This document shows, piece after piece, positions 1-18,922 of a stretch of DNA of 18,922 bases. Position 1 is the first letter of the stretch. Each line of letters begins with the position of its first letter. The translations under genes and the position numbers were made by a program. Source of the DNA: Candidatus Hadarchaeales archaeon (GTDB lineage: Archaea; Hadarchaeota; Hadarchaeia; Hadarchaeales; Hadarchaeaceae); contig JAWCKV010000018.1 in NCBI GenBank assembly GCA_038851565.1, positions 1-18,922 of the forward strand. The letters are read 5' to 3'. The notes under the pieces are model-generated. The model was not told where the DNA came from, did no database searches, and worked only from the letters and a program-made list of their open reading frames with translations.

Positions 1-1330
1 GACTTCCGGGCACCTGGAACTGCGCGAGCGGATACACCTCCTCCAGCTCCTCAGGAACAGGACCGAAGACGGGAAGAAGCCTCACCAGGTGAACGCCCTC
101 CGGATCAAAAAGGCGCAACCTCTCGTATTCTAGACATGGAAGTATGAGCAGGGTCTTGGATGGCCTAGGCTCGTACCTCTCCCTGAATCTCCGCTCGTGC
201 CTTATGACCTCAGGCCTGAACAGCGACTCCTCCCCCAGGTAGAAGAACGCTGATATCTTCGTGACCGGGTCTAACCTTTCGATTGCATTTGAAAACAGGA
301 TCAGCTTTCTGAGTCCCTCGAGCAACCTGGGGTGCGCGGTGCACCTCATCTGCACATGCTCCCACAGTCTTCCCTCGCGTATCGCCTGCCTTATTGCCCT
401 TATCTCCGCGAAGCTGGCATGGAGGTTGTGGCGTGCAAGTGATCTGACCCTCTCGCTCACCGGGGCAGCGCGGAGCTCCTCGGGCGAGGTTGAGGAGCAC
501 ACCGGGCATGAGCAGGGGAACTCGCGGAGCTCGCCGAGGAGGAACGTGCCCCAGGCGGTCATGTACCTCCCGTCCCTCGCATAGAGCGCGTACGCAGCTG
601 AATCGAAGAGATCGCACCCCATCAGCACTGCGAGAGAAAACATCATCGGGTGGCCAGCCCCGAACAGGTGAACCGGCCTCTCCGGAGGAAGGTTGAGCTT
701 TGCGGCCATCACCAGATCCACCAGCTCGGCATATCTGTATTCCTCCATCAGCTCCACAGGGCTCCCGATCGCGTGCACGTGATAGTCCAGCCTCCCCATC
801 TCCCTCGCACACTCCTCCACCAGCTGCCTGAACTGTCCTCCCTGAACCGGGCCGCACCAGAGCACGTCCGGGTTGGACCTCATGCCGACCGCCTGCCGTG
901 CCCTCTCCAGGGTCTCCTGCACGGTCCAGCTCGCCCTCTCCTGCGTGACATCAATTCCTGTCGGGGCATCCAGTATTGTCGCTATGTCCGGCGCTATTCC
1001 CTCCTGATACCTCACGATCTCCTCGGGCGAGACCTCTATGTCGCCGTACCTGAGGATCTGGTACCCGCCGCTGTCGCACATCACAGGTCCATCGTAGTCC
1101 AGTACCCCGTGTACCTTTTTCTCCAGCGCCTCCTCCTCGAAGTGCCTCATGATGATGTAGGCGTTCGTCATCACCAGGCTGGCCCCGAATTCCTCCCTTA
1201 TCTCCCTGGGGGGGATTATCATTTCAAGCGGGTTGATGACCGGCATGAGGGTCGGCGTTACCACCTTACCGTGCTTGAGGGTCAGAAGGCCGATCCTTCC
1301 CATTCCGCACTTTTCCCTTACCTCGAAGAT
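1..1330 (-). CDS. tgtA: archaeosine tRNA-guanine(15) transglycosylase (arcTGT), 3' end truncated by window edge
   Basis: Manually translated open frame with no stop before position 1: (I)FEVREKCGMGRIGLLTLKHGKVVTPTLMPVINP...TNAYII...DSGGYQ...HLFGAGHPMMFSLAVLMGCDLFDSAAYALYA...FPCSCPVC...HNL (Zn site)...FGPVPEELEEVYPLAQ. Start is uncertain: ATC at 1330 after GGTGA, or the first canonical ATG at 1303. Confidence 0.96.
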   Translation of the reverse strand, partial: MFEVREKCGMGRIGLLTLKHGKVVTPTLMPVINPLEMIIPPREIREEFGASLVMTNAYIIMRHFEEEALEKKVHGVLDYDGPVMCDSGGYQILRYGDIEVSPEEIVRYQEGIAPDIATILDAPTGIDVTQERASWTVQETLERARQAVGMRSNPDVLWCGPVQGGQFRQLVEECAREMGRLDYHVHAIGSPVELMEEYRYAELVDLVMAAKLNLPPERPVHLFGAGHPMMFSLAVLMGCDLFDSAAYALYARDGRYMTAWGTFLLGELREFPCSCPVCSSTSPEELRAAPVSERVRSLARHNLHASFAEIRAIRQAIREGRLWEHVQMRCTAHPRLLEGLRKLILFSNAIERLDPVTKISAFFYLGEESLFRPEVIRHERRFRERYEPRPSKTLLILPCLEYERLRLFDPEGVHLVRLLPVFGPVPEELEEVYPLAQFQVPGS

Positions 1331-1351
1331 GGGATCACCAACAGAGGATGG

Positions 1352-1370
1352 GCGCTTGAAACAAAAAGCG
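1352..1370 (-). terminator. possible oligo(T) terminator / short hairpin after mat
   Basis: Minus strand reads TAA CGCTT TTTGTTTC AAGCG directly after the mat stop: a T-rich tract inside a 5-bp inverted repeat. Confidence 0.3.
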
Positions 1371-2576
1371 TTAACACACCAGATACTTGCCCTGAGCCAG
1401 CTCGCTGCAGAACTTGTCCATCCTGTCCAGCTCGCTGTTGAACGTCTCCCTTATCTGCTCCTCGATGTCCTTCATCGACACACTCTCCTCCGGTATGACC
1501 CTGGCGGTCGCTATCGCTGGCTGGTCTATGGGCTTCCCTATCTCGCTCACGAGCCAGACGTAAACCTCCCTCAATCCGGGAACCCTGATGTATATCTCGT
1601 TCGCGATCCTGTGCGTGAGTATGTTGTATATTTTCCCAACGTGGCTTACCGGATTCTTTCCGGCCGCGGCCTCGGACCCGACGTGCCTGTTCAGCGGTAT
1701 CACCCCGTTAGGCCTGTTGCCCCTTCCGACCTGGCCAGAGTCCGCTCCGTCCGCGCTTGTGCCGAGGACTGTGAGGTAAACGCCATCCACCCCCCTCCCC
1801 CTTACGTCGAGGGTGTTTAGCTTGAGGCTAACGTTGAACTCGCAGTTCTCCGCCAGAAACTCCTTTAGCCTACCCGTTATCTCCTCCTTAAGCCTGAAGT
1901 AGTGGTTCTCATCGTTCACGAACCTGTCGACGAATGCCGCTCCCACAGTCAGCGAGAGATCTCCGTCCCTCCTGAACCCCATCACCTTTATGTCCTCGCC
2001 AAGTGCGGGGAACTCCCTCTTGACCTCCCTGGAGTTCAGGAACCTCTCGGTGTCCAGCACTATGCGCTCGGTGGGGGTCATGGGAGCGTAGCCCACCGCG
2101 GCAGATGTGTCGTTCGCGCTCAGTATCCTGCCTCCTCTCCTGAATATGTCCGTGAGCGCAGCCGATCCTGGCTTCAGCTCGACCTGGTACCTCAGGTGCT
2201 GATCCGGGTCCACGAACCTCAGGTTATCCCTTATCCATGTCTTCGCAGCCCTTATCGCTATCTCCTCCACGGGGACCGTGTCATCTCCCACCCTGGTCGT
2301 GGCCCTGTCTCCGAAGATGAGGAGCATGGGCTGGATCACCCTACCTCCGCCGAATCTCGTCTCCACCTCACCGGCCACCAGGAGGGACTTGTCGGCGTTG
2401 TGGTGCATTATGGCCCCAAAGCGCTTCATGTACTCCGCGCTGAGCTCCACAGAAACCCTGTCCAAAACCGCGTCGCATATCGTGTCCGGGTGTCCCAGTC
2501 CCTTCCTCTCAACTATCTCGAAGCGCTGCTCCTCCAGCGGGAGCTGCCTGAACTCCTCCACCATGATGTTCCTCAA
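1371..2576 (-). CDS. mat: archaeal-type S-adenosylmethionine synthetase (methionine adenosyltransferase)
   Basis: Motifs EIVERKGLGHPDTICD, HHNADK, ANDTS, GEDIKVMG, GTSADGADSGQVGRGNR, EAAAGKNPVSHVGKIYN. Start placed at TTG 2576 (GGAGGCGA-4nt-TTG, giving the family-typical MRNI.VE); the ORF-track ATG at 2594 is the alternative. Confidence 0.97.
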   Translation of the reverse strand: MRNIMVEEFRQLPLEEQRFEIVERKGLGHPDTICDAVLDRVSVELSAEYMKRFGAIMHHNADKSLLVAGEVETRFGGGRVIQPMLLIFGDRATTRVGDDTVPVEEIAIRAAKTWIRDNLRFVDPDQHLRYQVELKPGSAALTDIFRRGGRILSANDTSAAVGYAPMTPTERIVLDTERFLNSREVKREFPALGEDIKVMGFRRDGDLSLTVGAAFVDRFVNDENHYFRLKEEITGRLKEFLAENCEFNVSLKLNTLDVRGRGVDGVYLTVLGTSADGADSGQVGRGNRPNGVIPLNRHVGSEAAAGKNPVSHVGKIYNILTHRIANEIYIRVPGLREVYVWLVSEIGKPIDQPAIATARVIPEESVSMKDIEEQIRETFNSELDRMDKFCSELAQGKYLVC

Positions 2577-2608
2577 GCCCTCGCCTCCACCCATTCACCC
2601 CCCCGGTG

Positions 2609-2640
2609 TATTTATATGTTTTGATGCCGATATAACCAAG
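2609..2640. promoter_or_regulatory. overlapping divergent TATA-box region (mat / HTH-CBS)
   Basis: The only AT-rich stretch between the divergent genes: TTTATATG (2611-2618, +) and TTATAT on the minus strand (2630-2635). The two form a TTATAT-N12-ATATAA inverted repeat. Confidence 0.55.
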
Positions 2641-2650
2641 GGTAATAGAA

Positions 2651-3223
2651 TTGATCTACCGGCCCTCTGAGATAAAGGCGATCAGAATCAGGCTGAAGCT
2701 AACGCAGGCTGAGCTCGCGAAGAGAGCCGGGGTCACGCAGGCATACATAGCGAAGATAGAGGCCGGAGAGGCCGACCCGAGGATATCCACAATGGAAAGG
2801 ATATCCAGGGCGCTTGAGGAGTCCATGCCAAAGTCCCAGCGCGTTTCTATCAGGGAGATCATGTCCTCCCCCGTGATCTACGTCAGGCCGTCCGAAAAGG
2901 TCGCCCAGGCGGTTCAGCTCATGAGGTCCCACGACGTCTCGCAGCTGCCGGTGCTTGAGGGAGGAGTGCAGGTGGGATCTGTAACCGAGGGGACGCTGGT
3001 CAAGAAGATCGCGTCTGTCGGTGACCTGAACAGCCTCATGGAGGAGACCGTTGAAAGAATAATGGATGGGCCCCTGCCGACTGTTGGAGACGACGCGGAT
3101 CTCGACACTGCCCACAGGTTGCTGGAACACGAACCAGCCGTGCTCGTGATCTCCCATGGGAGGGCAGCTGGCATAGTGACGAAGGCAGACCTGTTCAAGC
3201 TCACGGGGGCTCAGAAACGGTAG
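2651..3223 (+). CDS. XRE-family HTH transcriptional regulator with C-terminal CBS pair (COG3620-like)
   Basis: N-terminal Cro/C1 HTH (IRIRLKLTQAELAKRAGVTQAYIAKIEAGEADPRIST) followed by tandem CBS motifs (IMSSPVIYV...SQLPVL..G..VGSVTE; IMDGPLPTV...GIVTKADL). TTG start. Confidence 0.92.
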   Translation: MIYRPSEIKAIRIRLKLTQAELAKRAGVTQAYIAKIEAGEADPRISTMERISRALEESMPKSQRVSIREIMSSPVIYVRPSEKVAQAVQLMRSHDVSQLPVLEGGVQVGSVTEGTLVKKIASVGDLNSLMEETVERIMDGPLPTVGDDADLDTAHRLLEHEPAVLVISHGRAAGIVTKADLFKLTGAQKR

Positions 3224-3233
3224 CGGTGCAAGC

Positions 3234-3947
3234 ATGGAGAGCGTAAGGGAGAGAATAGCGAGGTGGATAGCCGGGGACATAGTGGTGTCTGAGGACCATG
3301 GGTCTGCCATCAGGCGCTGGAGGGAGAGGTTCGGGCTGACCCAGACCTCACTGGCCGAGAGGGTGGGAGTTTCACCCTCTGTGGTGAGCGACTACGAGGC
3401 AAACAGGAGGAAGTCCCCCGGAGCCTCCATGGTCAGAAAGATAGTTGAGACAATGATCCTGGCAGATGAGGAGAGGGGGGGGAACCTCGTGAGGAGTCTC
3501 TCCCAGATATTCGGCTCCCAGCTTCCTGCAGATGTGGTCCTCGAGATAAGGGAATTCAAAGAGCCAGTGGAGGGGAAAGCCGTATGTAAGGCGGTCGATG
3601 GAGAGGTCATGGCAAACCGCGATCTGCTGGACAGAAAGCTCTTCGGCTACACAGTAATAGATGGGCCAAGGGCCGTCCTACAGCTCTCAGTGGACGATTT
3701 CAGGCGACTCTACGGGCTGACCACAGAGAGGGTCCTGGCATTTACGGGGGTGACAACTGGCAGGTCGCCCATGGTGGCCATCAAGGTCATTGGCATAACA
3801 CCCGGGATGGTTGTACTTCACGGGGAGCTGGCCTCGCCCGACCCGCTGGGCGTTAGGATCGCTGAGATGCTGAAGGTTCCCCTAGTGATATCCCGCCTGC
3901 CCTCCCCCGAAGCACTCCTGGAGTCCCTCAGGAAGTGCGGGAGATAA
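3234..3947 (+). CDS. archaeal XRE-family HTH transcriptional regulator (COG1709-like, DRTGG-like C-terminal domain)
   Basis: IAGDIVVSEDHGSAIRRWRERFGLTQTSLAERVGVSPSVVSDYEANRRKSPG HTH; conserved C-terminal GYTVID, FTGVTTGRSPMVAIKV. This family is recurrently found next to archaeal HMG-CoA synthase. Confidence 0.88.
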   Translation: MESVRERIARWIAGDIVVSEDHGSAIRRWRERFGLTQTSLAERVGVSPSVVSDYEANRRKSPGASMVRKIVETMILADEERGGNLVRSLSQIFGSQLPADVVLEIREFKEPVEGKAVCKAVDGEVMANRDLLDRKLFGYTVIDGPRAVLQLSVDDFRRLYGLTTERVLAFTGVTTGRSPMVAIKVIGITPGMVVLHGELASPDPLGVRIAEMLKVPLVISRLPSPEALLESLRKCGR

Positions 3948-3950
3948 CGG

Positions 3951-3978
3951 CTTTTGACGATAACGATTTCGTCAATAG
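3951..3978. promoter_or_regulatory. inverted repeat, candidate transcription-factor site
   Basis: CT-T-TTGACGA-taacgatt-TCGTCAA-T-AG: perfect 7-bp arms at 3954-3960 and 3969-3975, plus outer CT/AG pairs. Confidence 0.6.
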
Positions 3979-4000
3979 AAAGGTTTTTATGAATTTTAAG
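3977..4000 (+). promoter_or_regulatory. BRE + TATA promoter of HMG-CoA synthase/thiolase/DUF35 operon
   Basis: Purine-rich AGAAAGG (3977-3983) followed by TTTTTATG (3984-3991); a second TTTTAAG at 3994-4000; about 30-40 nt upstream of the GTG start. Confidence 0.65.
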
Positions 4001-4029
4001 GTAGGCTATTCAGACGGAGAGAAGGGAGA

Positions 4030-5088
4030 GTGCAAGCATTGGCTGTTGGCATAGTCGGGTACGGCGCCTACATCCCGAGGTACAGGATAAAGGTCGAGGA
4101 AATAGCCAGGGTATGGGGAGACAATCCGGAACTAATAAAGAAGGGCCTATTGGTGGAGGAAAAGTCCCTGCCGGGTCCTGATGAGGACACCGCGACGATA
4201 GCGGTCGAGGCTGCGAGGAATGCCGTTAAGAGGTCCGGCATAAACCCACAGGAAATAGGCGCAATCTATGTGGGGTCTGAATCCCCCCCTTACGCGGTCA
4301 AGCCAACCGCAACCATAGTCGCCGAGGCCATCCAGGCCACCCCTAACCTCACAGCCGCAGACATGGAGTTCGCGTGCAAGGCTGGTACCGCCGGGATCCA
4401 GAGCTGCATGGGCCTGGTCGAGGCAGGGGTGATAAAGTACGGGATGTCGATAGGCGCTGACACAGCGCAGGGCGCACCGGGGGATCCGTTGGAGTACACC
4501 GCGGCTGCAGGGGGGGCAGCAGTTATAATCGGGAAGGACGGATTCAGCGAGCTGCTCGCGACCGTGGAAGGAACATGTTCCTACACCACTGACACTCCTG
4601 ACTTTTGGAGGAGGGAAATGAGGCCATACCCAAAACACGGCGGAAGGTTCACTGGAAAGCCAGCCTACTTCAAACACGTGGTTTCGGCAGCCCAGGAGCT
4701 CATGAGGAGGCTGAGGCTGACCCCTCAGGACTTCTCCTATGCCGTGTTCCACCAGCCAAACGGCAAGTTTCCGCTGGCGGTGGCCGAGGTCCTGGGCTTC
4801 ACAAAGGAGCAGGTGATGCCCGGGCTTATCACGCCAAAGATAGGGAACACGTACTCCGGGGCCTCCCTCATAGGGCTGGCGGCTGTCCTTGATCAGGCGA
4901 AGCCGGGGGAACGCATCCTCCTCACGTCCTTTGGGTCTGGTGCGGGAAGCGACGCTTTTAGCTTCGTGGTCAGGGAAGCCATAGACTTGAAACGGGACCT
5001 CGCCCCCAAGGTGGTGGACTACGTTGGGAGAAAGACATATGTCGACTATTCCACCTATGCCAAATACAGGAAGATCCTGGTGAAGTGA
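4030..5088 (+). CDS. mvaS: hydroxymethylglutaryl-CoA synthase, archaeal type
   Basis: [25 protein letters not shown], catalytic [43 protein letters not shown]. Alternative TTG start at 4039. Confidence 0.97.
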
Positions 5089-6252: not shown

Positions 6253-6662
6253 TGGCCGTGCCGAGGTTCTGGCGGGAAATACCCAGCAGGTACAACCTGA
6301 TCGGAAGCAGGTGTGAGAAGTGCAACAAGATATACTTCCCGCCCAGATACATGTGCCCGGAGTGCAGGAGGGTTGGAAGGATGCAGCCGCACCACCTGAA
6401 GCCGCGGGGGAAGATCGTCACACACACAACGATATACGTGGCCGCCAGCGGCTTTGAGGACCAAGTCCCCTATGCCCTAGCAATAGTGGAGCTGGAGGAG
6501 GGGCCGAGGATACTAACGCAGATAACTGACTGCGATCCAAATGAGGTCAAGATAGGGGATGAGGTCGAGATCATATTCAGGAAGCTAGGTGAGGAAGGGG
6601 ACGAGGGGGTCATATACTACGGATACAAGGCCAGAAAGGTAGAAATGCCTAACTCCTCCTAG
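6252..6662 (+). CDS. DUF35 family Zn-ribbon/OB-fold scaffold of the thiolase/HMG-CoA synthase complex
   Basis: [17 protein letters not shown]...CPEC Zn ribbon, OB-fold (PYALAIVELEEG...IG.EVE..FRK...YGYK); TGATG coupling to the thiolase. Confidence 0.94.
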   Translation: MAVPRFWREIPSRYNLIGSRCEKCNKIYFPPRYMCPECRRVGRMQPHHLKPRGKIVTHTTIYVAASGFEDQVPYALAIVELEEGPRILTQITDCDPNEVKIGDEVEIIFRKLGEEGDEGVIYYGYKARKVEMPNSS

Positions 6663-7404
6663 CGAATGTCAGGTAGCCGGTGTGGGCTATCATCCTCGAG
6701 CTCGGCCTGGTCCCACTATCCATAACAACGATCTCTCTCACCAAGCACTCTATAGTCTTGAGACCTATGAACCCGAAGTTCCTGACCTCCCTATAGAACC
6801 TCTGAAGGTGCTCCACACATGGCGCGAAGACCGAAAGATATCCTCCCGGCTTCAGAGCTCTCTCCGCGTGTGGAAGAACCAACTCAGGCCTAGGGATATC
6901 GAGCGTGATGAGATCGAGATCCTTCTCATCTATTCCCCCGCAGATGTCCTTCAGCTTGATCTCAACCACTCCCTCAAGACCTGCGAGCCTCACGTTCTCC
7001 CTCGCAACCTCTGCAAAGTCCTCCCTCACCTCGTAGCTCACCACCCTCCCGTCAGGCCTCACCAGGTTGCCCAAGAATATAGCGAGCGCGCCCGAGCCAG
7101 TCCCCGCATCCACCACCATGTACCCAGGACCCACGCCGGTGTGCGCGACAATCTGGGCCGCATCCTTGGGCAGCATTATCTGCGGAACCCGCTTTATCTT
7201 CTCGAGGTAGTCCGCAGGTGAGGGCAGAAGCACTACGAACTCCCTCCCTATATGGGACCTGAGCCTGCACCCCGGCTCCTTTCCCACAGCCTCCCCCAGG
7301 TCCACGACGCCGAGGTTGGTCTGCAGCTTCCTGCTCTCCGCCCTTGTCAGATATTTCCTTCCCCTCTCGTCAACGAGGATTATCCTTTCCCCCTCGCGTA
7401 TCAT
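6649..7404 (-). CDS. trmI: tRNA (adenine-57/58-N1)-methyltransferase
   Basis: MIREGE start (ATG 7404; ORF-track TTG at 7413), PQIMLPKDA, SAM motif VDAGTGSGAL, SYEVREDF, LDIP.P, TRP...HTGYLTFARR. Confidence 0.95.
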   Translation of the reverse strand: MIREGERIILVDERGRKYLTRAESRKLQTNLGVVDLGEAVGKEPGCRLRSHIGREFVVLLPSPADYLEKIKRVPQIMLPKDAAQIVAHTGVGPGYMVVDAGTGSGALAIFLGNLVRPDGRVVSYEVREDFAEVARENVRLAGLEGVVEIKLKDICGGIDEKDLDLITLDIPRPELVLPHAERALKPGGYLSVFAPCVEHLQRFYREVRNFGFIGLKTIECLVREIVVMDSGTRPSSRMIAHTGYLTFARRS

Positions 7405-7413
7405 CAGGCTCAA

Positions 7414-7457
7414 ATCAACTATTTAACTGCAGAATTAAAATAGGGAGAGGTGAACTC
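7414..7457. promoter_or_regulatory. divergent promoter region trmI / secF
   Basis: AT-rich CTATTTAA-ctgcagaa-TTAAAATAG (7419-7443), with TATA-like boxes on both strands, then SD GAGGTGA 4 nt before the secF GTG. Confidence 0.5.
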
Positions 7458-8318
7458 GTGAAAACTCCTGCGAGCTTCATGAAACCAAAGCAGATGGTGG
7501 CGGTGGCCCTCATCGTCTCCATTTCTCTCGGGACCTACGCCGCGCTGGCAGGAATTCCCAAGAGCATAGAGTTCACCGGCGGCTCTATGATAAGGGTGAG
7601 GTGTGAGAACGCGCCCGACCCCTCATCCGTTGAAACTGCCATCGAGGGGCTTCTGGGCGCAGACGTTTCGGTGGACTCCGTGAGGGGAGGGCTGGACATA
7701 AGAACGCAGCTCCAGCTAACCGAGGAGCAGAAAACGGCCCTGAGAGAACTCATGTCGTCGGAGTTCAACGTAACTGGAGAGGGCGTTAACATTGACGCGC
7801 TTGGGGCTAACATAATAGCGGTCTACGCTGGACAGGCAATCGTCGCGGTTGCCGGGGCCTTCGTCGCCATGGGCGTCATAATACTGATCGCGTTCAGGCG
7901 CAGGGTTCCGGTGGGCGCCATGCTGCTGGCTGTGGGCCTTGACATGGCATGCGTCCTCGGACTGATGGGCATATTTGGCGTGGAGCTCAGCCTCGCCTCC
8001 CTGGCTGGAATGCTCATGCTCATAGGATACTCGGTGGACACGAACATACTGTTGACGACCAGCCTCCTGAGGAGAACCGAGGGAGAAACGCTTGAACGCC
8101 TTGCGACCGCCATGAGAACTGGGCTGATGATGAGCGGCACGACCATGGTCCCCCTCATAGCCCTGAACGTCCTGACCACCGCACCGCAGCTATACCAGCT
8201 GACCATGGTCCTGATATTTGGCATACTGGCGGACATCATGAACACCTGGATGCTCAACGCGGGAATCCTGCTAGAGCACTCAAAAAAGGAGCGGGTGAAG
8301 TACCATGTCGCTCTTTAG
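7458..8318 (+). CDS. secF: protein-export membrane protein SecF
   Basis: GIPKSIEFTGGS after TM1, five further TM helices, LMLIGYSVDTNILLTT. Start GTG 7458 after GAGGTGA; the ORF-track start at 7344 overlaps trmI and is unlikely. Confidence 0.93.
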   Translation: MKTPASFMKPKQMVAVALIVSISLGTYAALAGIPKSIEFTGGSMIRVRCENAPDPSSVETAIEGLLGADVSVDSVRGGLDIRTQLQLTEEQKTALRELMSSEFNVTGEGVNIDALGANIIAVYAGQAIVAVAGAFVAMGVIILIAFRRRVPVGAMLLAVGLDMACVLGLMGIFGVELSLASLAGMLMLIGYSVDTNILLTTSLLRRTEGETLERLATAMRTGLMMSGTTMVPLIALNVLTTAPQLYQLTMVLIFGILADIMNTWMLNAGILLEHSKKERVKYHVAL

Positions 8319-10137
8319 AAAGAGAAGCGTTGCCCTGCTCATCCTGCTCGTCCTCCTGTCAGCGCTCGCTGTTTGGAGTCCCTGGAAGCCAGTTGACCAG
8401 AACGCGAGGGATGCTATAGGGTGGCCGGCAGATTACACCAGGGGGCTGAGATTTGGGGTGGATATAATCGGAGGCTCAAGGATAACGCTAGAACTCAAGG
8501 TATCCAGAGCAACATTTCTGGTAACCGCAGCCAACCCGGAGAACGTGTGGTGGCAGGATATAGTTCCCAGGATAGAGGACAACCTGTACGTGAACGTCCG
8601 CACGATATCCCTTGACCCTGCATCGGGCACTGCGGTGGCGGAGATAGGAAGAAATGTGACGGAGAACCTCCTGGAGAGCATCGTCGGAGAGCTGGCCGAC
8701 GTGGTGGCGATAGAGAGGACGGCGACAGAGGAAACCGTGAACGACGTGGTCTCGGTCCTCACTGCCAGGGTCGACCCCTACGGGACGCTTGGCACGAGCT
8801 TCACCCCGCTGGGGGCAAATCTTGTCCTATTCGAGGTGGCCGGGCTTCCGATCGAACAGGCTAAGGCGCTCCTGGGCAAGCCCGGAAAGCTTGAGGTCTT
8901 CATGGACGAGAACCTGCTCCTGCGCGGTGGGGACATAGTGAGCGTTGGCACGCCGTACAGGAGCACGCAGAGGCAGAACTCCGTAGAGCTCCCCTTCAGG
9001 CTCAACGATGAGGGAGCAGCCAGATTCAGCGCAGCGGCGGCGGGAAAGGCCAACTACCCGACCGTGATATATGTGGACAGACCGGCCGACTCGATACTCC
9101 TCTTCGACGAATCGCTTCTCTTGACGCTCCACGAGCTCGAGTACGACGAGGAGGGCATGAAGTTCAGGGGCAGCACAGGAGGGGGAATTCCATATCCGAT
9201 CCTCGTCACCGCCGTAAAGTCACCAAAGGACTCCCTCTCCGGGGACGCGGCAGACTTCCTGCTCTCACAGGTGGGCCTGAAGTCGAGGGTGATACTTCTC
9301 GGCGACTTCTCGCGGTCTGTAGTTGAGAACCTGGAGAACGCGTACTCCGTGGTGAGCATTCCGAGGAACTCCGGGGAGAGCGTGAAGAGCTGGATAGAGA
9401 GGGCCTGCGGCCTCAAGAGCGTGGTCGTGATCAGCCCGGAGCTCGCCTCTGATCTCCAGCAGGGAAAAATGGTGAGGGACCTGACGATCACCATAACCAG
9501 GGAAACCTTGGACGAGGCCATGCAGGAGGCAAAGAACCTCAAGATAGTCCTCTCGGAGCGCCTTCCGGTGGAGGTGGAATACGTGAGCGAGACCTCAATA
9601 GAGCCCAGGCTTGGATCGCAATTCCTGAGGGAGGCGCTCTATGCGGGAATATTCTCGCTGATCGGGGTCTTTGTTCTGGTGTTCGTCTGGTACAGAAGAC
9701 TCCTCCTGTCCTCGGCGGTCATGATAACAATGCTCTCCGAGCTGATCATCACGCTGGGGGCTGCGTCCGTGCTGAACTGGTCAATAGGGCTGCCGGAGCT
9801 CGGAGCGCTCGTGATAGTCATAGGCACCGGCGTGGACCATCAGATAATAATAACGAACGAGCTGCTGAGGGGTGGTCTGCCCCAGGCTGGCGCCCCTGGC
9901 CTAGGGTGGCGCATCTCCCGCGCCTTTTCGGTGATATTCGCCGCCGCCGCAACCACCGCCGCAGCCATGATGATGCTCGCCATTCTCGGCTTCGGCGCGA
10001 TGAGGGGCTTCGCCCTCATAACTATAACAGGCACCCTGATAGCGGTCCTCATCACTAGGCCAGCGTTCGCGAACATCGCGAGCGCGGTGATCCTCTGGCG
10101 CGGGATGAGGATCAGGGCGAAAACAGGACAAGGATGA
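8305..10137 (+). CDS. secD: protein-export membrane protein SecD
   Basis: GLRFGVDIIGGSRITLEL, RVDPYG, LLGKPGKLE, I.PRLG, IGTGVDHQIIITNE, MRGFALITITG.L...ITRPAF; overlaps the secF stop. Confidence 0.94.
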   Translation: MSLFRKRSVALLILLVLLSALAVWSPWKPVDQNARDAIGWPADYTRGLRFGVDIIGGSRITLELKVSRATFLVTAANPENVWWQDIVPRIEDNLYVNVRTISLDPASGTAVAEIGRNVTENLLESIVGELADVVAIERTATEETVNDVVSVLTARVDPYGTLGTSFTPLGANLVLFEVAGLPIEQAKALLGKPGKLEVFMDENLLLRGGDIVSVGTPYRSTQRQNSVELPFRLNDEGAARFSAAAAGKANYPTVIYVDRPADSILLFDESLLLTLHELEYDEEGMKFRGSTGGGIPYPILVTAVKSPKDSLSGDAADFLLSQVGLKSRVILLGDFSRSVVENLENAYSVVSIPRNSGESVKSWIERACGLKSVVVISPELASDLQQGKMVRDLTITITRETLDEAMQEAKNLKIVLSERLPVEVEYVSETSIEPRLGSQFLREALYAGIFSLIGVFVLVFVWYRRLLLSSAVMITMLSELIITLGAASVLNWSIGLPELGALVIVIGTGVDHQIIITNELLRGGLPQAGAPGLGWRISRAFSVIFAAAATTAAAMMMLAILGFGAMRGFALITITGTLIAVLITRPAFANIASAVILWRGMRIRAKTGQG

Positions 10138-10399
10138 TCGTCAGGGACAGGGACAGCGCCCCCAGCATCCCCGTGTAGCCCAGGAAGAAACTGTGGAAAC
10201 CGAGACCCCTGAGCGCACGGCCGAACATCGCGCAGAGGAATGCTGAGCAGGCGAAGCAGAACCAAATCGTTGCCAGTGACACGACTGCCGGGTTGATTCC
10301 CCCGATGATGAGGAGAAACGCCAGGAAGCCAGCAACCGACAGCGCCAGGGCGAAGGGGTAGAATACCAGGAGAAAAACGTGAAATCTGCGCGAATCCAT
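10112..10399 (-). CDS. small hypothetical membrane protein (about 3 TM helices), last gene of the atp minus-strand unit
   Basis: 95-aa hydrophobic ORF; ATG 5 nt after a GGTGA that overlaps the DUF61 stop; fills the gap between secD and DUF61. Confidence 0.7.
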   Translation of the reverse strand: MDSRRFHVFLLVFYPFALALSVAGFLAFLLIIGGINPAVVSLATIWFCFACSAFLCAMFGRALRGLGFHSFFLGYTGMLGALSLSLTIILVLFSP

Positions 10400-10404
10400 G
10401 TCCC

Positions 10405-10800
10405 TCACCTGGAAAACGCATACTGGGTGGTCGTGGGAAATCTGCTCCTGACGGCTGATATCTCCGGACCGTATATCACTATCTCACTTCCCTCCGCCCT
10501 CTTTCCCAGGACCGAGCAGATCACCTTCACCTCCAAATCCCCCCTCACGACCGCAGCGCCGCTCCCCAGGCTCCTCGTCATCCATATCAGGATTGGAAGC
10601 CTCAGCTCGCCCCAGCTCTTCTCAGACAGGAGCCCTGATAGATCCCTGAGTTCCTCCCTCCGGAAGGAGTGAAACGTTCCGCTCCTGGTCTCCACGCCCG
10701 GCCTTTCAGCCCTGAGGGCTTCAGCTAGGGAAATGTGGGCCCTGGGAAGGTGCGCGTTGAGCCTGGAGAGCTCAAGCTCTATCAGACGCTCTGGGTCCAT
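10405..10800 (-). CDS. DUF61 / UPF0216 family protein
   Basis: ELSRLNAHLP...SLAEAL...HSFRREEL..L...LRLPILI...RFPTTTQYAF pattern; SD GGAGGAG; overlaps the atpD end. Confidence 0.8.
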   Translation of the reverse strand: MDPERLIELELSRLNAHLPRAHISLAEALRAERPGVETRSGTFHSFRREELRDLSGLLSEKSWGELRLPILIWMTRSLGSGAAVVRGDLEVKVICSVLGKRAEGSEIVIYGPEISAVRSRFPTTTQYAFSR

Positions 10801-11435
10801 GACCGCTCCTCCATGATCTTCTTTATTCTCTTGAGGCGCGAGAAGTTCTCCCTCTCCATCTCGTCGAGGCGCATCATGATGAACTTTATCGCCTCCCTCA
10901 GCCTCGGTATCAGCACGTACTCCAGCGAGTTCACCCTCCTCTTCGTGGCCTCGAGCTCCTCGGCTATCGCGAGCGCCTCGGCCTCTGCCTCAGCAAGAGG
11001 GACAAGCAGATCCAGCGCTGCCTCGAACTCCTTTGCAGCTGCATCGAGGAGGGAGGAGGTGTCGTGCAGGCTGTAGCCCCTGCTGAGGGCACCGCGGAGG
11101 GCAGAGTGCCCCTCGAGGACAGGGAGGATTATCCCCATGAGGTTGCGCGTTGAGGTCTCCAGATCTGCACCCTTCGTGCACTCCCTGGCCGCCTGAATCG
11201 TCTCCTGGGTCCCGATGTCAGCGAAACAGAGTGAGAGAGCACGGTGGGCCCTGCCCAGCTGCTCGAAAGCTCTTTTCCTGAGATCCTTTATCTTCCTGAG
11301 GGAGGCGAAGAGTTCCACCACGAGCGCATCCATCTTCTCCTCGAGAAGGTCGTGTCCCGTCCTGGCCAGGGCCTCCCTCTTCCTGAGCCTTATCAGCTCG
11401 GTCCTGGTCGGAGAAAGCTCTGAAGCGGTTGCCAT
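10782..11435 (-). CDS. atpD: A/V-type ATP synthase subunit D (central stalk)
   Basis: PTRTELIRLRKR..LA..GHDLLEEKMDAL, NLMGIILP, TKRRVNSLEYVLIP, LDEMERENFSRLKRIK. ATG 11435 after GAGGTGA. Confidence 0.96.
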   Translation of the reverse strand: MATASELSPTRTELIRLRKREALARTGHDLLEEKMDALVVELFASLRKIKDLRKRAFEQLGRAHRALSLCFADIGTQETIQAARECTKGADLETSTRNLMGIILPVLEGHSALRGALSRGYSLHDTSSLLDAAAKEFEAALDLLVPLAEAEAEALAIAEELEATKRRVNSLEYVLIPRLREAIKFIMMRLDEMERENFSRLKRIKKIMEERSWTQSV

Positions 11436-11440
11436 GCTGT

Positions 11441-11770
11441 TCACCTCTCCACGGTTATCTCCGAGCCTATCGTCCTTCTCAAGCGCTCGCCCAGCTCGTC
11501 CGCCTTCGGCACATAGCCGGAGCCGTCCGGTATCATCAACACAACAGGAAAGATCCCCTTGGACCTCATGAGCCCTCTCAATTCCTCTCCCAGCTCCTCC
11601 GCCACGCGGTACGTGATCATCACGAGGCCAACTTCCTCAGATGAGACAAGATCCCTCAATGCACGGAGGGTCGACTCCCTGTCAGAATGCGAGTGGCCCA
11701 AGTGGACCCCGGCCAAAAACATGCCCGCTACCGTGGATCTGTCGCCAATCACGGCCATCTTACGCCCCAA
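11441..11770 (-). CDS. atpF: A/V-type ATP synthase subunit F
   Basis: KMAVIGDRSTVAGMFLAGV, VGLVMIT, PVVLMIPD, RRTIGSEI. Confidence 0.93.
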   Translation of the reverse strand: MGRKMAVIGDRSTVAGMFLAGVHLGHSHSDRESTLRALRDLVSSEEVGLVMITYRVAEELGEELRGLMRSKGIFPVVLMIPDGSGYVPKADELGERLRRTIGSEITVER

Positions 11771-12890
11771 CCATCATCCCCTCCAGCGTCCTCCTGACCG
11801 CACCCGGTTCAGCGCCGTCGAACTTCAGCCTGTATATCGTCCTTAGTTTCTTCAGCTCGTGCTCCTTCTGGGCAATGTATGAGATCGCCGGGGCCACTGT
11901 GAAGAACCTCGTCATGGCAAGCCATCTGAAAAGCCTTATCCTGCCCCTCTCGAGGGCTGCCTCGGCGGCGGTGGCCCCCTTTTCGCCTATCTCCCCTGAA
12001 ACCTCGGAAAGCACCCTGCCGACGGTTGTTATGTGTATCATGTTTATTGCGGAAGCGAGATCCTCGGCCATTACCATGGCGCGAAGCATCTCCTCGTTCA
12101 GCTCGTGTGATGGCCTGACAATACATGCGCTGATCTCCTCCGGGGGCGCTCGCTCCTGCTTAAGCCTGAGGATGAGCCTGGCGTTTAGCGAGTCCAACTC
12201 ATATCCGATCATCTCCCTCATAACCTTTCGCTGGTCGCGCCTGCCGAGCACGTCGCTCCAGAGCGAGGACCAGTAGTGCCTGTCCAGGGCAAGCAGAAGG
12301 GCCCTCAAGCCCTCCCTCCGGTACGCCTCCATGGCACCAGATATGACGTGGTGATATTCACTTCCCCTCAAGTACTCCAGCAGCTCCTCGAGCGTCCTCG
12401 CGGATGCGAGCATCTCAAGGCGCTCACGCGACATGGTGGGGGAGGGCATCAGCTCCCTCGCCCTATCGCCGGGCGTGACCCCAGAGTGTATCATCGAAAT
12501 TATCGCCTTGAGGTTCCACACATCGATTCTGGAGAGAATCCTCGCCACTGTCGCCCTGCGTCCCTTGGGCAGCATCCCCAAGAGTTCCCTGTACCTTGCG
12601 TTCGCGTTCTCCCTCAGCGCCCTCTCGAATTCCAGCGGATCCACCGGGGCCGATCTCCTGAGCTCCGCAATCTGCTCCCTGTACTCGCTCTCCTCAAGGG
12701 CTGAGAGCACGGCCTCCGCTGATGGGGCGCCTGCGAGCTCCGCCAGCTTTGACTCGGGCAGAAATCTGGCTTCCCAGGCGCTCAGCGTTGCGTTGCAAAA
12801 AACATACGGCATTGAGCGTCTGGCAAGCAGGACGAAGGCCAGAAAAAGGGCCGCGACCAGCCCCAGTATGAGAATCGGCGCCTCGATCAT
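11760..12890 (-). CDS. atpC: A/V-type ATP synthase subunit C
   Basis: N-terminal hydrophobic segment, PY..NA...A.EARFL, DVWNLKAII, LDRHYW, ELDSLN..LILRLK, SYIAQKEHELKKLRTI; position between E and F. Confidence 0.92.
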   Translation of the reverse strand: MIEAPILILGLVAALFLAFVLLARRSMPYVFCNATLSAWEARFLPESKLAELAGAPSAEAVLSALEESEYREQIAELRRSAPVDPLEFERALRENANARYRELLGMLPKGRRATVARILSRIDVWNLKAIISMIHSGVTPGDRARELMPSPTMSRERLEMLASARTLEELLEYLRGSEYHHVISGAMEAYRREGLRALLLALDRHYWSSLWSDVLGRRDQRKVMREMIGYELDSLNARLILRLKQERAPPEEISACIVRPSHELNEEMLRAMVMAEDLASAINMIHITTVGRVLSEVSGEIGEKGATAAEAALERGRIRLFRWLAMTRFFTVAPAISYIAQKEHELKKLRTIYRLKFDGAEPGAVRRTLEGMMVGA

Positions 12891-12891
12891 C

Positions 12892-13500
12892 TCAATCCTT
12901 GAACAGAGTTTCTGCCACCTTCACCCTGAGGGACTCCATCTCCCGCGCAAGTCTTCCCTCGAAGGTCTCATCCAGCTCAACCCTCAAATCCGGAGCCACA
13001 ACCCTCACCCCTCCCGTGACAATTATGGGATCGCCCAGCGCCAAAGAGGCACCCGTCTCCCTCTCTATTGTCCTCTTTTCCCTCTCAATTATGCCAAGAT
13101 CCCTCCTGTTTGTCCTTACCACGACCTTCCTCGCGCCAATGCCCTTCACCGCCTTTTTCACGATCCTCACCAGATCCTCCTCGTATTTCCTAGACCTCAC
13201 GTGCTCCTCCAGTTCTTTCCTCGCCCTGGCGAAAACCGACTCGATCAGCTCCTCCCTCCTTCTCAGGATCTCCTTCTTGATCCTCAGCCTCCCCTCAGAC
13301 AAGATCCTCTCCATCTCGGCAGCCCCCATCCTCTCGGCCTCCCTGAGCCTTGCCTCCTCGGTCTCCTTTGCGGTTATCTTGGCGGCCTCCAGGGTCGCCT
13401 CGGCCTCCTTTCTGGCCTCGGCCACTATCCGCTCGGCCTCCTCCCTCGCCTCCTTTATTATGTCCTCGGCAATGAGCTGCGCCCCTCTCTCTGACTGCAG
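12892..13500 (-). CDS. atpE: A/V-type ATP synthase subunit E (peripheral stalk)
   Basis: Long E/R/A-rich helix then GGVRVV..D.RVELDETFEGRL. The frame extends upstream of the ORF-track GTG (13425) through GAQLIAEDIIKEAREEAERI to CTG 13500 behind GGAGGCGG. Confidence 0.92.
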   Translation of the reverse strand: MQSERGAQLIAEDIIKEAREEAERIVAEARKEAEATLEAAKITAKETEEARLREAERMGAAEMERILSEGRLRIKKEILRRREELIESVFARARKELEEHVRSRKYEEDLVRIVKKAVKGIGARKVVVRTNRRDLGIIEREKRTIERETGASLALGDPIIVTGGVRVVAPDLRVELDETFEGRLAREMESLRVKVAETLFKD

Positions 13501-13513
13501 GGAACCGCCTCCC

Positions 13514-13999
13514 TCATATGGCGCCTATCGTGGTGAGCAAAAGTATGGTGGCGAGGAGTCCGAGGATCGCGTACAGCTCAACCATCACGATGTAGAGCAT
13601 TCCCTGGGAGAAGACCTCTGGCCTTTTCGCTATCGCGCCCACCCCTGCCGTCGCGACCATGCCCTGAGCGTAAGAGGTTATCCCCTGAAGGATGGCCGGA
13701 ATGGCGGCCGCGAGGACGCCGAGACCAAGCCAGGAGGTTGCAGGGTCGGCCAGCTTCCCGGACACCGCAGGATATGCGACGAACATTATGAGGAAGCCCG
13801 CAACGAAGCCGTATATCCCCTGGGTTCCAGGCATGACCTGGTAGACGAAGAGCCTGGAGAACTTCTTCGGATCCTCGGCCGAAACCGCTGCGGCCGCCAC
13901 GCCTGTCATGCCGACTCCGAGCGCTGCGAATATCCCGGGTATGGCCACGCACAGCCCGGCAGCCACCACGACCCAGAGCTCCTCACCGGCCAACAGCAC
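13514..13999 (-). CDS. atpK: A/V-type ATP synthase subunit K (c, proteolipid), four-TM V-type
   Basis: Two hairpin repeats; EDPKKF, MPGTQGIYG, AQG, MVELYAILG. Confidence 0.96.
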   Translation of the reverse strand: MLLAGEELWVVVAAGLCVAIPGIFAALGVGMTGVAAAAVSAEDPKKFSRLFVYQVMPGTQGIYGFVAGFLIMFVAYPAVSGKLADPATSWLGLGVLAAAIPAILQGITSYAQGMVATAGVGAIAKRPEVFSQGMLYIVMVELYAILGLLATILLLTTIGAI

Positions 14000-16022
14000 C
14001 CGCCCCCTTTATCCTCGTGATGCTCCTCTTGACCGCAAACGGTTTAAATTCTTCCCCTCCGCCCTCATAAAACTTGCTGAAGAACTCCGCAAAGTGCAGC
14101 CTCAGCGTGTGGACGAATGCTCCCAGAGAATTGAGGAATATGTTGAAGGAGTGGGCGATGAAGAACATGAAGCCGAAGGCTATGGCGAGCACGCAGATGT
14201 ATACCGCGGTGAGGGGGTTTATTTGTGCGGGAGCTATTCCGTTCCATATGAAGCCGAGTATGAAGTTTATCGAGAAGGCTATCACTCCGCTCGCTATGCA
14301 GAGGGCCAGAAGCCTGCAGTAAGAGGTGACGTCCGCTATCAGCCCCGTTATCCCGTAAACCGAGTTCACCGCACCGCCCACCTTGCCCCTCACTCCGGAT
14401 CCGCCTACCGCCGCCCCCGCCACGCCCAGGGCAAGGCCGGAGTAGAACATGAGCCTGAACGCGGCCACCGTGCCCGGGGCAGGGGATAGCGGATTGAAGG
14501 CGTCGAAGAGCCCCACCTTCGGGAAGGAGAAGTTTATGCCGAACTCGTACAGCCCTATCCCCAGGATGCAGAAGCTGAGCCCGAAGAATCCCAGCAGAAG
14601 CAGCACCTTGGACAGCCTTTCGAAGGCTATGTTCCTCCAGTTCCTGTTGAAGATGTCCTTCAACACGCCGGTAAGCCCCAGGCCGAGCAGCAGATGCGCT
14701 ATTCCTATGAATATCGTGAGCTTGAGCAGCGGGACCGGTCTCTCGATGGGATTGACCCACGCGCCCTCCCCCAGTCCGAACCATCCCCCGACCAGCAGAC
14801 CCGCCACCACGGCGCATATCCCGGAGACCACCATGACCTTCCTGAGGCTCATCGGGAAGGCCTTCGCTATCCACACGCCAGATGCCATGAAGAGCGCCAG
14901 CGCGAGCCCGTATCCGGCGTCCGAGAGAGCTATTGCGAAGAATATCGGAAAGGTGAAGCTCAACACGGGCGTTGGGTCCGCTTCCCTGTACTTCGGCATC
15001 CCGTACATCTTCGTTATGTACTCGAAGTTGCTGATGCCTGGGGGGTTCTCGAACTTGGAGGGAACCGATTCCACCTCCTCACCTGTGGGCTCGTAGGACC
15101 TCAAAACGTATTTTCCGCCTGTCGCGGCCGCCAGCACCCTCTCGACCCTCTCCAGTCCCCTCCCCGGCACCCAGCCCTCGATCACCACCGTGGACTCAGT
15201 CCTTCCGAAGAGCCTCCTCGCATCAAGCCTTTCCCTCTGTATCTCCAGGAGTTCCCTGATCGCGGCTATCCTCGCCCCGTGCTTCCTGGAGATGCGCTGA
15301 ATCGCCTTTCTCACCTCCTCTATTTTGAAGTCGATCTCCCTGATGGCATCCTCGAGCTCCCGCATCACATCATACGGAGCGCCCCTCACCTCCGGAACCT
15401 CAAGAAGCTCAACCTCGTACCTGTACAGCAGTGGAGACACTCTCTCCCTATCCCTGGAGAGGCAGGCCATCAGGACGAGCCTCCGCCTCCCGGACCCGAA
15501 GGACTCCACCACAACCCTCTCCAGAAGCGAGGAGCGCATCTCCGAGATGAACCCGCTGAGGTTCTCCTCCGCAATCTCGCCCACTCCTATCCAAACCCTG
15601 CCGGTGGAGCGCAGGCACTCCATCTCGGCGCCAAGATCCGCCAGCCGCCTCACGGCCTGCTGCCTCGCGACCAGCTTGGATCTCTCGGCCTCGAGCGAGC
15701 GCATTCTCTCCCTCAGCGAGGAAATCCTCGGCCAGAACCTTTCCCCTGTCCTCCTCGCCAGGGCCAGGACCTCTGAAAAACCCATCTCGCGCACCGCCAC
15801 CGATCTGGGAGCCGGGCCAAGGAGTTCCTCCATCTCCTTGAACCTCGAAAGCAGCGAAGATACCTCGTTGATCTCCTCTCCCAACGCCATCCTCGCGAAC
15901 TCCTGATCTGAGACCTCCCTGAGCTGAACGACGCCGGCCTCGTGGAGAGCGCCCACGACTCTCTCGCACTCGCTTTTCAGGAAGACGCACTTAAACCTGC
16001 GCATGCGGGCGGTTCTGAACGT
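13983..16022 (-). CDS. atpI: A/V-type ATP synthase subunit I (a)
   Basis: LHEAGVVQL, IEGWVP, MYGMPKYREADPTP, SDAGYG, DVTSYCRLLAL (essential Arg), HTLRLHFAEFFSKFYEGGG. Start either ACG 16022 (FRTARM) or ATG 16004. Confidence 0.97.
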   Translation of the reverse strand, partial: TFRTARMRRFKCVFLKSECERVVGALHEAGVVQLREVSDQEFARMALGEEINEVSSLLSRFKEMEELLGPAPRSVAVREMGFSEVLALARRTGERFWPRISSLRERMRSLEAERSKLVARQQAVRRLADLGAEMECLRSTGRVWIGVGEIAEENLSGFISEMRSSLLERVVVESFGSGRRRLVLMACLSRDRERVSPLLYRYEVELLEVPEVRGAPYDVMRELEDAIREIDFKIEEVRKAIQRISRKHGARIAAIRELLEIQRERLDARRLFGRTESTVVIEGWVPGRGLERVERVLAAATGGKYVLRSYEPTGEEVESVPSKFENPPGISNFEYITKMYGMPKYREADPTPVLSFTFPIFFAIALSDAGYGLALALFMASGVWIAKAFPMSLRKVMVVSGICAVVAGLLVGGWFGLGEGAWVNPIERPVPLLKLTIFIGIAHLLLGLGLTGVLKDIFNRNWRNIAFERLSKVLLLLGFFGLSFCILGIGLYEFGINFSFPKVGLFDAFNPLSPAPGTVAAFRLMFYSGLALGVAGAAVGGSGVRGKVGGAVNSVYGITGLIADVTSYCRLLALCIASGVIAFSINFILGFIWNGIAPAQINPLTAVYICVLAIAFGFMFFIAHSFNIFLNSLGAFVHTLRLHFAEFFSKFYEGGGEEFKPFAVKRSITRIKGAGAVGR

Positions 16023-16026
16023 CCTC

Positions 16027-16338
16027 TCACCCCAGCACGGATTTCAGCACGAGGTCCACCGCGGCTGCCATGCTCCTCTCCGCGGATCTCTCCATCTCCT
16101 GAACCCTCCTCCCCGCATCATCCTCCATCCTGGCCATCTCCTCCTCGGCCATCCTCCTGTACTCCTCAAGTATCTCCGAGGCCCTCCTCGATGCCCTTTT
16201 CTCCGCCTCTGCCTTCAGGGACTCCGCCTCCCTCCTGGCGGACTCTATTATCCTCACGGCCTCCCTCTTTGCCGACTCCACTATTAGCCTGGCGCGCTCC
16301 TCCGCCTCAAAAACAGCCCTCAGGGCCTCCCTCACCAT
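16027..16338 (-). CDS. atpH: A/V-type ATP synthase subunit H (G-like peripheral stalk)
   Basis: 103-aa charged coiled coil (EAEERARLIVESAKREA...AVDLVLKSVLG), first gene before subunit I. Confidence 0.88.
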   Translation of the reverse strand: MVREALRAVFEAEERARLIVESAKREAVRIIESARREAESLKAEAEKRASRRASEILEEYRRMAEEEMARMEDDAGRRVQEMERSAERSMAAAVDLVLKSVLG

Positions 16339-16416
16339 CCTGCGCCCCTTTACCCATAGCCAGAGGAGATAAAAAAGTATATTCGGATGATGAGCAATCT
16401 TTAAGGCGTCAGGGGG
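16339..16416. promoter_or_regulatory. bidirectional promoter region atpH / atpA
   Basis: 78-bp spacer with AT-rich block ATAAAAAAGTATATT (16369-16383) that reads BRE/TATA-like in both orientations, plus CTTTAAGG at 16399-16406. Confidence 0.5.
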
Positions 16417-18180: not shown

Positions 18181-18922
18181 GGGCAGCGGAATATCTGACG
18201 ATAGGGAGGGTTTCGGGTCCCCTCATATTCGTGGAGGGGGTGAGCGGAGTATCGTATGGCGAGATGGTCGAGATATTCACTCCGGACGGTGAGGTCAAGC
18301 ACGGACAGGTGCTTGACGCGTACACCGACAGGGCGATCGTCCAGGTGTACGAGGGCACCAGGGGGATAGACACCAGGAGCACAAGGGTGAGGTTCAGGGG
18401 AGAAACCGCAAAGTTCGGAGTGGGGCTCGAGCTGCTGGGCAGGATATTCAACGGAAGGGGGGACCCAATAGACGGCGGGCCGAGGCCCATTCCGGAGGAC
18501 ACATGGGACGTCCACGGAGCACCGATAAACCCCTACGCCAGGGAGTACCCGCGGGAGTTCATACAGACCGGGATATCCGCGATAGACGGCATGAACACAC
18601 TTGTGAGGGGACAGAAACTCCCCATATTTTCTGGGTCGGGGCTCCCGCACAACATGCTGGCCGCTCAGATAGCCAGACAGTCCAAGGTTCTCGGAGAGGA
18701 AGAGAAGTTCTCGGTGGTCTTCGCGGGACTCGGCATAACCCACGAGGAGGCGGCCTTCTTCAGGAGGGAGTTCGAGAGGACCGGCGCGCTCGAGAGGTCC
18801 GTGCTGTTCTTGAACCTCGCGAACGATCCCGCGATAGAGAGGATACTCACGCCAAGGCTGGCGCTCACGGCTGCGGAGTACCTTGCGTTCAATCAGGGGA
18901 TGCACGTGCTCGTCATCCTCAC
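18177..18922 (+). CDS. atpB: A/V-type ATP synthase subunit B, truncated by window edge
   Basis: ATGA overlap with the atpA stop. Manual translation: [22 protein letters not shown]...QVYEGT...[43 protein letters not shown]...[28 protein letters not shown]. Confidence 0.97.

Follow-up and report, generated by a model that had tools for sequence, protein, structure and literature searches.

Start codons of tgtA, atpE and atpI

Where does translation begin in genes whose expected first methionine is replaced by ATC, CTG or ACG? The question is raised by contig C18 (JAWCKV010000018.1), a stretch of 18.9 kb (18,922 nucleotides; the window) from the Candidatus Hadarchaeales archaeon genome G000, an 823-kb draft that is 87% complete and lies in 50 contigs. 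Three conserved genes of the window carry such codons: tgtA, encoding the archaeosine tRNA-guanine transglycosylase, and atpE and atpI of an A-type ATP synthase operon. A sequence-only reading of the window had proposed that these codons are starts set by a fixed spacing from the Shine-Dalgarno (SD) sequence, and that discrimination by the archaeal initiation factors aIF1 and aIF2 may be reduced in this lineage. The comparisons below indicate that near-cognate starts, meaning starts other than the canonical ATG, GTG and TTG, are real and conserved, but on fewer genes than first claimed and with no sign of broken factors. It is probable that the tgtA ATC, the atpE CTG and the atpI ACG are true weak start codons decoded by an ordinary archaeal initiation apparatus.

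All three genes lie on the minus strand, and SD strength is given throughout as the energy of the duplex with the anti-SD. In tgtA (2..1330, running off the contig end) the inferred start ATC at 1328..1330 lies 4 nucleotides (nt; tccc) after the SD match GGTGA (1335..1339; -8.1 kcal/mol). The inferred CTG start of atpE (subunit E; 12892..13500) occupies 13498..13500, 4 nt (ttcc) after GGAGGCGG (13505..13512; -12.1 kcal/mol), and gives a protein of 202 amino acids (aa). In atpI (13983..16022) the inferred ACG start at 16020..16022 gives 679 aa and again stands 4 nt (gagg) behind its SD match, GGGGTGA (16027..16033; -10.6 kcal/mol), the TGA of which is the atpH stop codon. No upstream in-frame ATG, GTG or TTG was found within the open frame of tgtA, atpE or atpI. 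The next canonical codons lie 9 codons in for tgtA (ATG 1303), 25 for atpE (GTG 13425) and 6 for atpI (ATG 16004), and calling the genes from common starts removes that many residues.

The start positions were assigned from the methionine column of the homologues and from curated profiles. Position 1 of TIGR00432 corresponds to tgtA residue 2, position 2 of NF004428 to atpI residue 2 and position 2 of PRK03963 to atpE residue 5; the alignment of tgtA with the P. horikoshii TGT (1IQ8) also begins at residue 2. Letters and profiles together thus bear out the placement of ATC, CTG and ACG at the family-typical N-terminus, 4 nt after an SD match. Equally, the same spacing was confirmed before canonical starts of the window, in secF (GAGGTGA-actc-GTG, 7447..7460, plus strand), in mat (GGAGGCGA-gggc-TTG, 2574..2588, minus strand, with an in-frame ATG also at 2594) and in the DUF61 gene at 10800 (GGAGGAGC-ggtc-ATG). 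The spacing is not fixed, however: among the ATG starts of four genomes, 4 nt is only the mode (0.42-0.54) and 5 nt is also common (0.20-0.37), and in the window both atpD and the gene at 10399 have a 5-nt spacing.

Recurrence in paralogues and related genomes

G000 has two A-type ATP synthase operons, one in the window (10782-18922) and one on contig C10 (8000-16000), each with an ACG-led atpI and a CTG-led atpE; protein identity between the two is 65% for AtpI, 64% for AtpE and 90% for AtpK. We scored the homologous start columns in 29 of 31 loci for atpI (2 skipped), 25 of 31 for atpK and 26 of 31 for atpE. The atpI column holds ATG 20 times, ACG 4 times, TTG 3 times and GTG twice, with the ACG codons coming from 3 genomes (both operons of G000, together with G008 and G015). 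In the atpK column CTG occurs 9 times (10 with locus L015), TTG 8 times, ATG 7 times and another codon once, the atpK of the window (13514..13993, minus strand) starting at TTG. The atpE column holds TTG at 19 loci and CTG at 3, from 2 genomes, while the start is shifted in 4. None of the scored loci has CTC, CTT, CTA, ACC, ACA or ACT at these three columns. This points to a start-like role for the column, because a plain leucine or threonine residue would show other CTN or ACN codons. The mean SD duplex of near-cognate atpI, atpK and atpE genes is -9.9, -15.7 and -12.7 kcal/mol, respectively, against -7.8, -11.2 and -8.9 for their canonical counterparts.

The start column of tgtA is near-cognate in 14 of the 19 genomes of the family to which G000 belongs (f1), with ATT in 7, ATC in 5 and ATA and GTC in one each. 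In 9 of these 14 the 40 codons upstream contain no canonical codon in frame; in 2 a stop codon immediately precedes the ATC. The SD duplex is -7.5 kcal/mol or stronger in 13 of the 14, whereas the 4 canonical codons in that column range from -5.3 to +1.0. Codons 2-9 differ pairwise by 0.36, 0.14 and 0.58 at codon positions 1, 2 and 3, a pattern that argues for their being coding. Similarly, the residues after the atpI start appear by eye to be under coding constraint (TTC AGA ACC GCC CGC vs TTC AAA ACG GCT CGA). The GTC is that of locus L034 (genome G009); it is two changes away from ATG and stands 4 nt behind GGTGG, and its sole alternative is a TTG 22 codons upstream with a poor SD.

Frequency of near-cognate starts

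G000 was compared with G008 (1.18 of 1.3 Mb) and G001 (0.4 of 1.0 Mb), both of the same family, and with G025 (0.82 of 1.3 Mb) of another family (f2). A conserved-SD test considered those aligned sites at which both genomes have an SD and the partner genome has a canonical codon. Over the 371 genes tested in the four Hadarchaeota genomes it returned ATG 185, TTG 86, GTG 56, CTG 17, ACG 4, ATA or ATC 4 and other codons 19. At 25 of the 371 conserved SD sites, and at 5 of 123 in G000, the counterpart of a canonical start was a near-cognate codon; in G025, CTG or ACG starts were found at 5 of 55. This tabulation revealed an excess of CTG and ACG: CTG made up 17 of the 20 CTN codons opposite canonical starts against an internal share of 0.37 (p=1e-5), and ACG 4 of the 4 ACN codons against 0.33 (p=0.012), both p values being overstated because the four genomes are kin. 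The recurrence of SD-led near-cognate use in the lineage, as first proposed, is upheld. An SD-model caller found near-cognate codons in 8/101, 11/188, 3/37 and 2/61 strong-SD genes, where control codon sets gave 1, 1, 1; 2, 0, 2; 0, 0, 1; and 0, 0, 0, respectively. From these data we estimate the share of conserved SD-led genes that may have near-cognate starts at about 4-7%, with a concentration on certain genes.

Under a strict test, in which no canonical codon was allowed ahead of the conserved residues, 19 of the 664 G000 genes were flagged; 4 were convincing by eye: atpI (ACG), atpE (CTG) and two CTG-led genes at C20:8162 and C9:11573. tgtA falls outside this set because the gene runs off the contig. 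We also surveyed the ribosomal protein cluster (30 genes in 80 loci and G000, with loci grouped by title and identity). Near-cognate codons were flagged in 19/536 gene-loci of Hadarchaeota and in 16/900 of the outgroups; we judged 16/536 and 1/900 of these to be real, and 13 of the 16 were aIF1. Ribosomal protein genes other than aIF1 were near-cognate in 3 of ~508 Hadarchaeota gene-loci. A homology-free scan of the codons that follow SD matches gave a weak hint only, being dominated by SD-like words within coding regions. Translational coupling, in which termination and reinitiation at an upstream stop codon would enable such starts, was rejected, since no enrichment of stops within 25 nt was seen (11/24 near-cognate vs 181/363, p=0.83).

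Two side observations concern start usage in G000. TTG accounts for 6% of leucine codons in G000 and G001 and for ~26-31% of conserved SD-led starts (32/123 and 26/84). A radical-SAM-like gene (C1:12223-13377, plus strand) has a conserved CxxC region in its N-terminal part, ahead of the first canonical codon, and an ATA is its candidate start.

The initiation machinery

The proposed reduction in aIF1 or aIF2 discrimination was not borne out by the sequences of the factors, the initiator tRNA and the 16S rRNA. aIF1 was found in 65 of the 66 Hadarchaeota genomes that made up our phylum sample, so its loss is rejected. It aligns over its full length with a solved archaeal aIF1 (4MO0), with KRKFGK for KRRFGK in the nearly identical, basic loop 1; in P. 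abyssi, residues of the aIF1 loop are important for binding to the 30S subunit (PMC6237735). aIF1A was present in all 5 genomes searched, and G000 has aIF2 alpha, beta and gamma as well as aIF5B; aIF2 and aIF1A look normal, as judged by eye only. The initiator tRNA was recovered from 10 of 20 fetched windows, all ten with the GGG/CCC anticodon stem. In G000 and G008 it is intron-split, with A1-U72 and the same stem. The 790, 966, 1338 and 1400 regions of the G008 and G025 16S rRNA match the motifs that we take to be those expected of the peptidyl (P) site. All 30 loci that include a 16S end have an intact anti-SD, GATCACCTCC, G000 itself being without an assembled 16S. An altered initiator tRNA, 16S P site or anti-SD is therefore also rejected. 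With aIF1, aIF1A, aIF2, initiator tRNA and 16S apparently intact, there is no sequence sign of damaged start discrimination, the amount and activity of the factors not being readable from sequence.

In the family of G000 the initiator tRNA contains several introns at unusual positions and is missed by ARAGORN (G000 C14:~6600-6790; L211, L364, L365, L367, L370). The P-loop of the G000 aIF5B (C6:22988-24772) reads GQVDAGKT, where G008 and G025 have GHVDHGKT; this change cannot explain the shared starts because it is specific to G000.

Starts of the initiation-factor genes and of outgroup genes

The gene for aIF1 itself often has a near-cognate start. Among 28 Hadarchaeota loci, CTG was found in 12, ATG at the site in 8, GTG in 3 and an overlapping ATG in 3, while 2 (including G000) were unassigned. 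The CTG lies 7 nt behind GGAGGTG(C/G), and in the 12 CTG loci and in G008 a stop codon stands 0-1 codons ahead of it. In family f2 aIF1 starts at ATG. Among 20 Thermococci-group and 20 Halobacteriota-group genomes (20 of 31 fetched for each group) none had CTG at the aIF1 start: the former had GTG 19 and ATG 1 (L376-L395), the latter ATG 17 and GTG 3. For atpI, 21 Methanococci-group genomes (20 of 38 matches fetched, and L328) had GTG 17 and TTG 4 and no ACG. Both genes thus tend to weak yet canonical starts in the outgroup samples. The near-cognate rate in Hadarchaeota exceeds that of the outgroups on these matched genes and in the ribosomal protein cluster, a comparison confined to those genes. 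Archaea in general may have weak aIF1 starts; in L168, a sequence titled Nanoarchaeota, aIF1 starts at ATA.

The aIF1 of G000 (C16:6084-6416; L082:1411-1743) has TCG where its relatives have CTG or ATG, and its ATG is out of frame, with one base fewer than in its congener. Two starts come into question, the TCG and a GTG that overlaps the rpl29 stop; a frameshift error was not supported, the contigs being without a gap. The aIF1A of G000 (C1:42681, plus strand) has CTG 5 nt behind GAGGTGA, an SD that itself contains a GTG in frame; G008 and G025 have ATG at that column. In the four genomes compared aIF2-alpha starts at GTG, TTG, CTG and GTG, the CTG being that of G008.

Explanations for the near-cognate codons

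If these codons are true weak starts, the SD duplex would bring the near-cognate codon into the P site, where the normal initiator tRNA would pair with it at one mismatch and in low yield. A strong SD would compensate for the weak codon, extending the rule for GUG and UUG; that weaker start codons go with stronger SD sequences is described in passages of PMC5622118. Selection would tolerate or keep a weak start on genes whose products are required in small or set amounts (tgtA, atpI, atpK, atpE, aIF1), and Hadarchaeota would have moved one notch further on the same genes than other Euryarchaeota, from GTG or TTG to CTG, ACG or ATH (ATA, ATC or ATT). We infer as likely, from comparative sequence data, that the near-cognate codons are translated, that they are inefficient and that weak starts are selected for. 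More speculative, and in our view doubtful, is the idea of a small regulon governed by a start-codon 'dial' that runs from AUG through GUG and UUG to CUG, ACG and AUH, in which a CUG-started aIF1 would feed back on its own level and set the output of the other near-cognate-started proteins. Such a regulon would comprise aIF1, aIF1A, aIF2-alpha, the membrane and stalk subunits of the ATP synthase and tgtA and would, if true, be stringency-controlled in a manner not described for archaea.

Several observations weigh against weak starts. In the tgtA tree the clades with near-cognate codons meet in an open fork, which is compatible with one origin or with several. A few of the 25 near-cognate sites are probably internal residues, and several calls of the SD-model caller are single-genome candidates. 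A swap test that admitted only genes whose partner has a single canonical SD-led start gave no clear excess of near-cognate codons for G000; its counts for CTG/ACG/ATH were 2/100, 3/59 and 1/49, several of them internal residues. In every CTG-bearing atpK the SD contains a GTG in frame; 2 of these genes also have an ATG. An ATG (10) or TTG (4) lies 9 codons downstream in all 14 near-cognate tgtA genes, as the next canonical codon in 13 of them, and atpI has its ATG 6 codons in, so that tgtA and atpI could also yield a second, shorter product. The further step, that the downstream ATG, TTG or GTG codons are the real starts, that the proteins lack their first 6-25 residues and that the near-cognate codons are decayed remnants of ancestral ones, appears improbable. 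Besides the ATG or TTG at tgtA codon 10 and the ATG at atpI codon 7 it can draw on the GTG at atpE codon 26, which has an SD-like sequence of -9.4 kcal/mol. Nevertheless, the skipped codons of tgtA and atpI preserve the encoded residues while their third positions change, the downstream codons of both genes have a poor SD (-0.8 to -5.3 kcal/mol), and the 4 downstream tgtA TTG codons count as one event because they form a single clade. In two other CTG-led atpE genes the next canonical codon is 40 and 57 codons in. The N-terminal segments at issue are FEVREK (TgtA), FRTAR (AtpI) and QSERGAQLIAEDIIK (AtpE).

The main rival, which is compatible with weak starts read by ordinary machinery and which we think unlikely though worth serious consideration, is a lineage-wide lowering of stringency: a CUG-started aIF1 would be kept scarce, acceptance would extend to every near-cognate codon that follows a strong SD, and starts would drift from T to C (TTG to CTG, ATG to ACG). 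The CTG starts of aIF1 (12/28 Hadarchaeota loci and G008 vs 0/40 outgroup genomes), the ACG starts of atpI (4/29 loci vs 0/21), the CTG swaps seen in single genomes on unrelated genes and the methionine-column CTG of the G000 aIF1A and the G008 aIF2-alpha are all in line with it. However, loop 1 of aIF1, the initiator tRNA and the 16S P-site segments show no altered residue, ribosomal protein genes remain canonical, and CTG or ACG starts occur in f2 (G025) although aIF1 starts at ATG there. A higher overall rate is not established by an outside-phylum comparison that covers chosen genes, and ~30% of putative alternative starts in H. volcanii are near-cognate too, according to parts of PMC7261190. 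C-to-U editing of the mRNA before translation is known from plant organelles. It would turn ACG into AUG and CUG into UUG, each by one change, but it leaves the ATC, ATT, ATA and GTC codons of tgtA unexplained and is very hard to credit. Assembly errors have virtually no chance of being the cause. The fragmented state of the G000 draft might suggest them, but an independent contig from a public run, which may come from the source sample, has 0 differences over 1000-2009, tgtA ATC included. Contigs also cover the atpE and atpI codons, the letter-by-letter match being that of 1000-2009. The C10 paralogues, at 64-65% protein identity, carry the ACG and CTG again, and other genera have the same near-cognate codons, in tgtA in 14 of 19 genomes. 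Paralogues and related genomes thus rule out assembly error, which the sequence-only reading had named as a possible refutation.

Relation to known systems

In Deinococcus, dnaA (ATC) and rpsL (CTG) have starts proven by proteomics (PMC2830850). As in Hadarchaeota, ATC and CTG there open conserved housekeeping genes across a lineage, gene callers misplace the starts, and the codons are thought to limit or regulate output, as we propose here. Unlike in Hadarchaeota, the machinery is bacterial (IF3, fMet-tRNA), N-terminal peptides are at hand, and about four genes and no ACG figure in the parts of PMC2830850 consulted; the Hadarchaeota starts would extend to ~4-7% of conserved SD-led genes, ACG included, and are inferred from sequence comparison. 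The same source describes AUU/AUA autoregulation of bacterial infC (IF3) and the AUU of E. coli pcnB, and poor-context feedback on eIF1 is mentioned in PMC6237735. Like infC and eIF1, aIF1 is a fidelity-factor gene with a putative weak start (CTG in 12 of 28 loci), and similar feedback on it would be conceivable; unlike in infC, this CTG is not universal, and the three window genes do not encode fidelity factors.

Much resembles ordinary archaeal SD-led initiation: the anti-SD GAUCACCUCC, a start 4-5 nt after GGAGGUGA, the same factors and the identity elements of the initiator tRNA. The P. abyssi aEF1A model mRNA has a 5-nt spacing (PMC7531240; PMC6237735). What differs is CUG, ACG and AUH on conserved core genes, as passages of PMC7531240 and PMC4705826 list archaeal starts as AUG, GUG and UUG only. 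Archaeal ribosomes nevertheless appear to initiate at near-cognate codons in ribosome profiling (Ribo-seq) of H. volcanii, where ~30% of putative alternative sites are of this kind (PMC7261190), and in M. mazei, where 5% of unannotated small open reading frames begin at CTG (PMC11456600). In the portions of these papers at hand, such candidates are alternative sites or small frames that were set aside or unvalidated, whereas the Hadarchaeota codons are the only plausible main starts and are kept across genera. Excerpts of a 2021 review report non-canonical archaeal translation as shown only in elongation and termination (PMC8211752). The open-access literature (supplements excluded) yielded no report for Hadarchaeota, nor of conserved ACG or ATH starts in archaea. 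Conserved ACG, CTG and ATH starts on core genes would offer natural test cases for the trade-off between aIF1 and SD strength.

Effect on annotation

The sequence-only reading had expected standard gene callers to truncate many proteins of the lineage. Truncation does occur, in that 4 of the 5 forms cut at the internal ATG are found in databases, including the window AtpI (673 aa, 6 residues short); 'many' overstates it, as only a few percent of genes are affected. It is also inconsistent across databases. The records of one TgtA cluster carry the same N-terminus in three versions (490, 496 and 508 residues), and a related TgtA entry opens at the first column (MFQILK), which indicates that NCBI annotation sometimes picks a table-11 alternative start. 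ACG is outside the start codons of NCBI table 11.

Other genes of the window

The minus strand of the window carries mat-tgtA and atpH-I-K-E-C-F-D-DUF61, and the plus strand HMG-CoA synthase/thiolase genes, secF-secD and atpA-atpB; some of these names come from curated profile matches and the remainder from our reading of the sequences. The last gene of the atpD-DUF61 run (10115-10399, minus strand) is a 95-aa hydrophobic open reading frame with ATG 5 nt after a good SD, GAGGTGA, and an NCBIfam profile search gave it no match. SecD (8305-10137, plus strand) is 610 aa long, ~100 aa more than the best archaeal profiles (506-544). The extension lies in the region ahead of the membrane domain, and the G025 orthologue starts at CTG.

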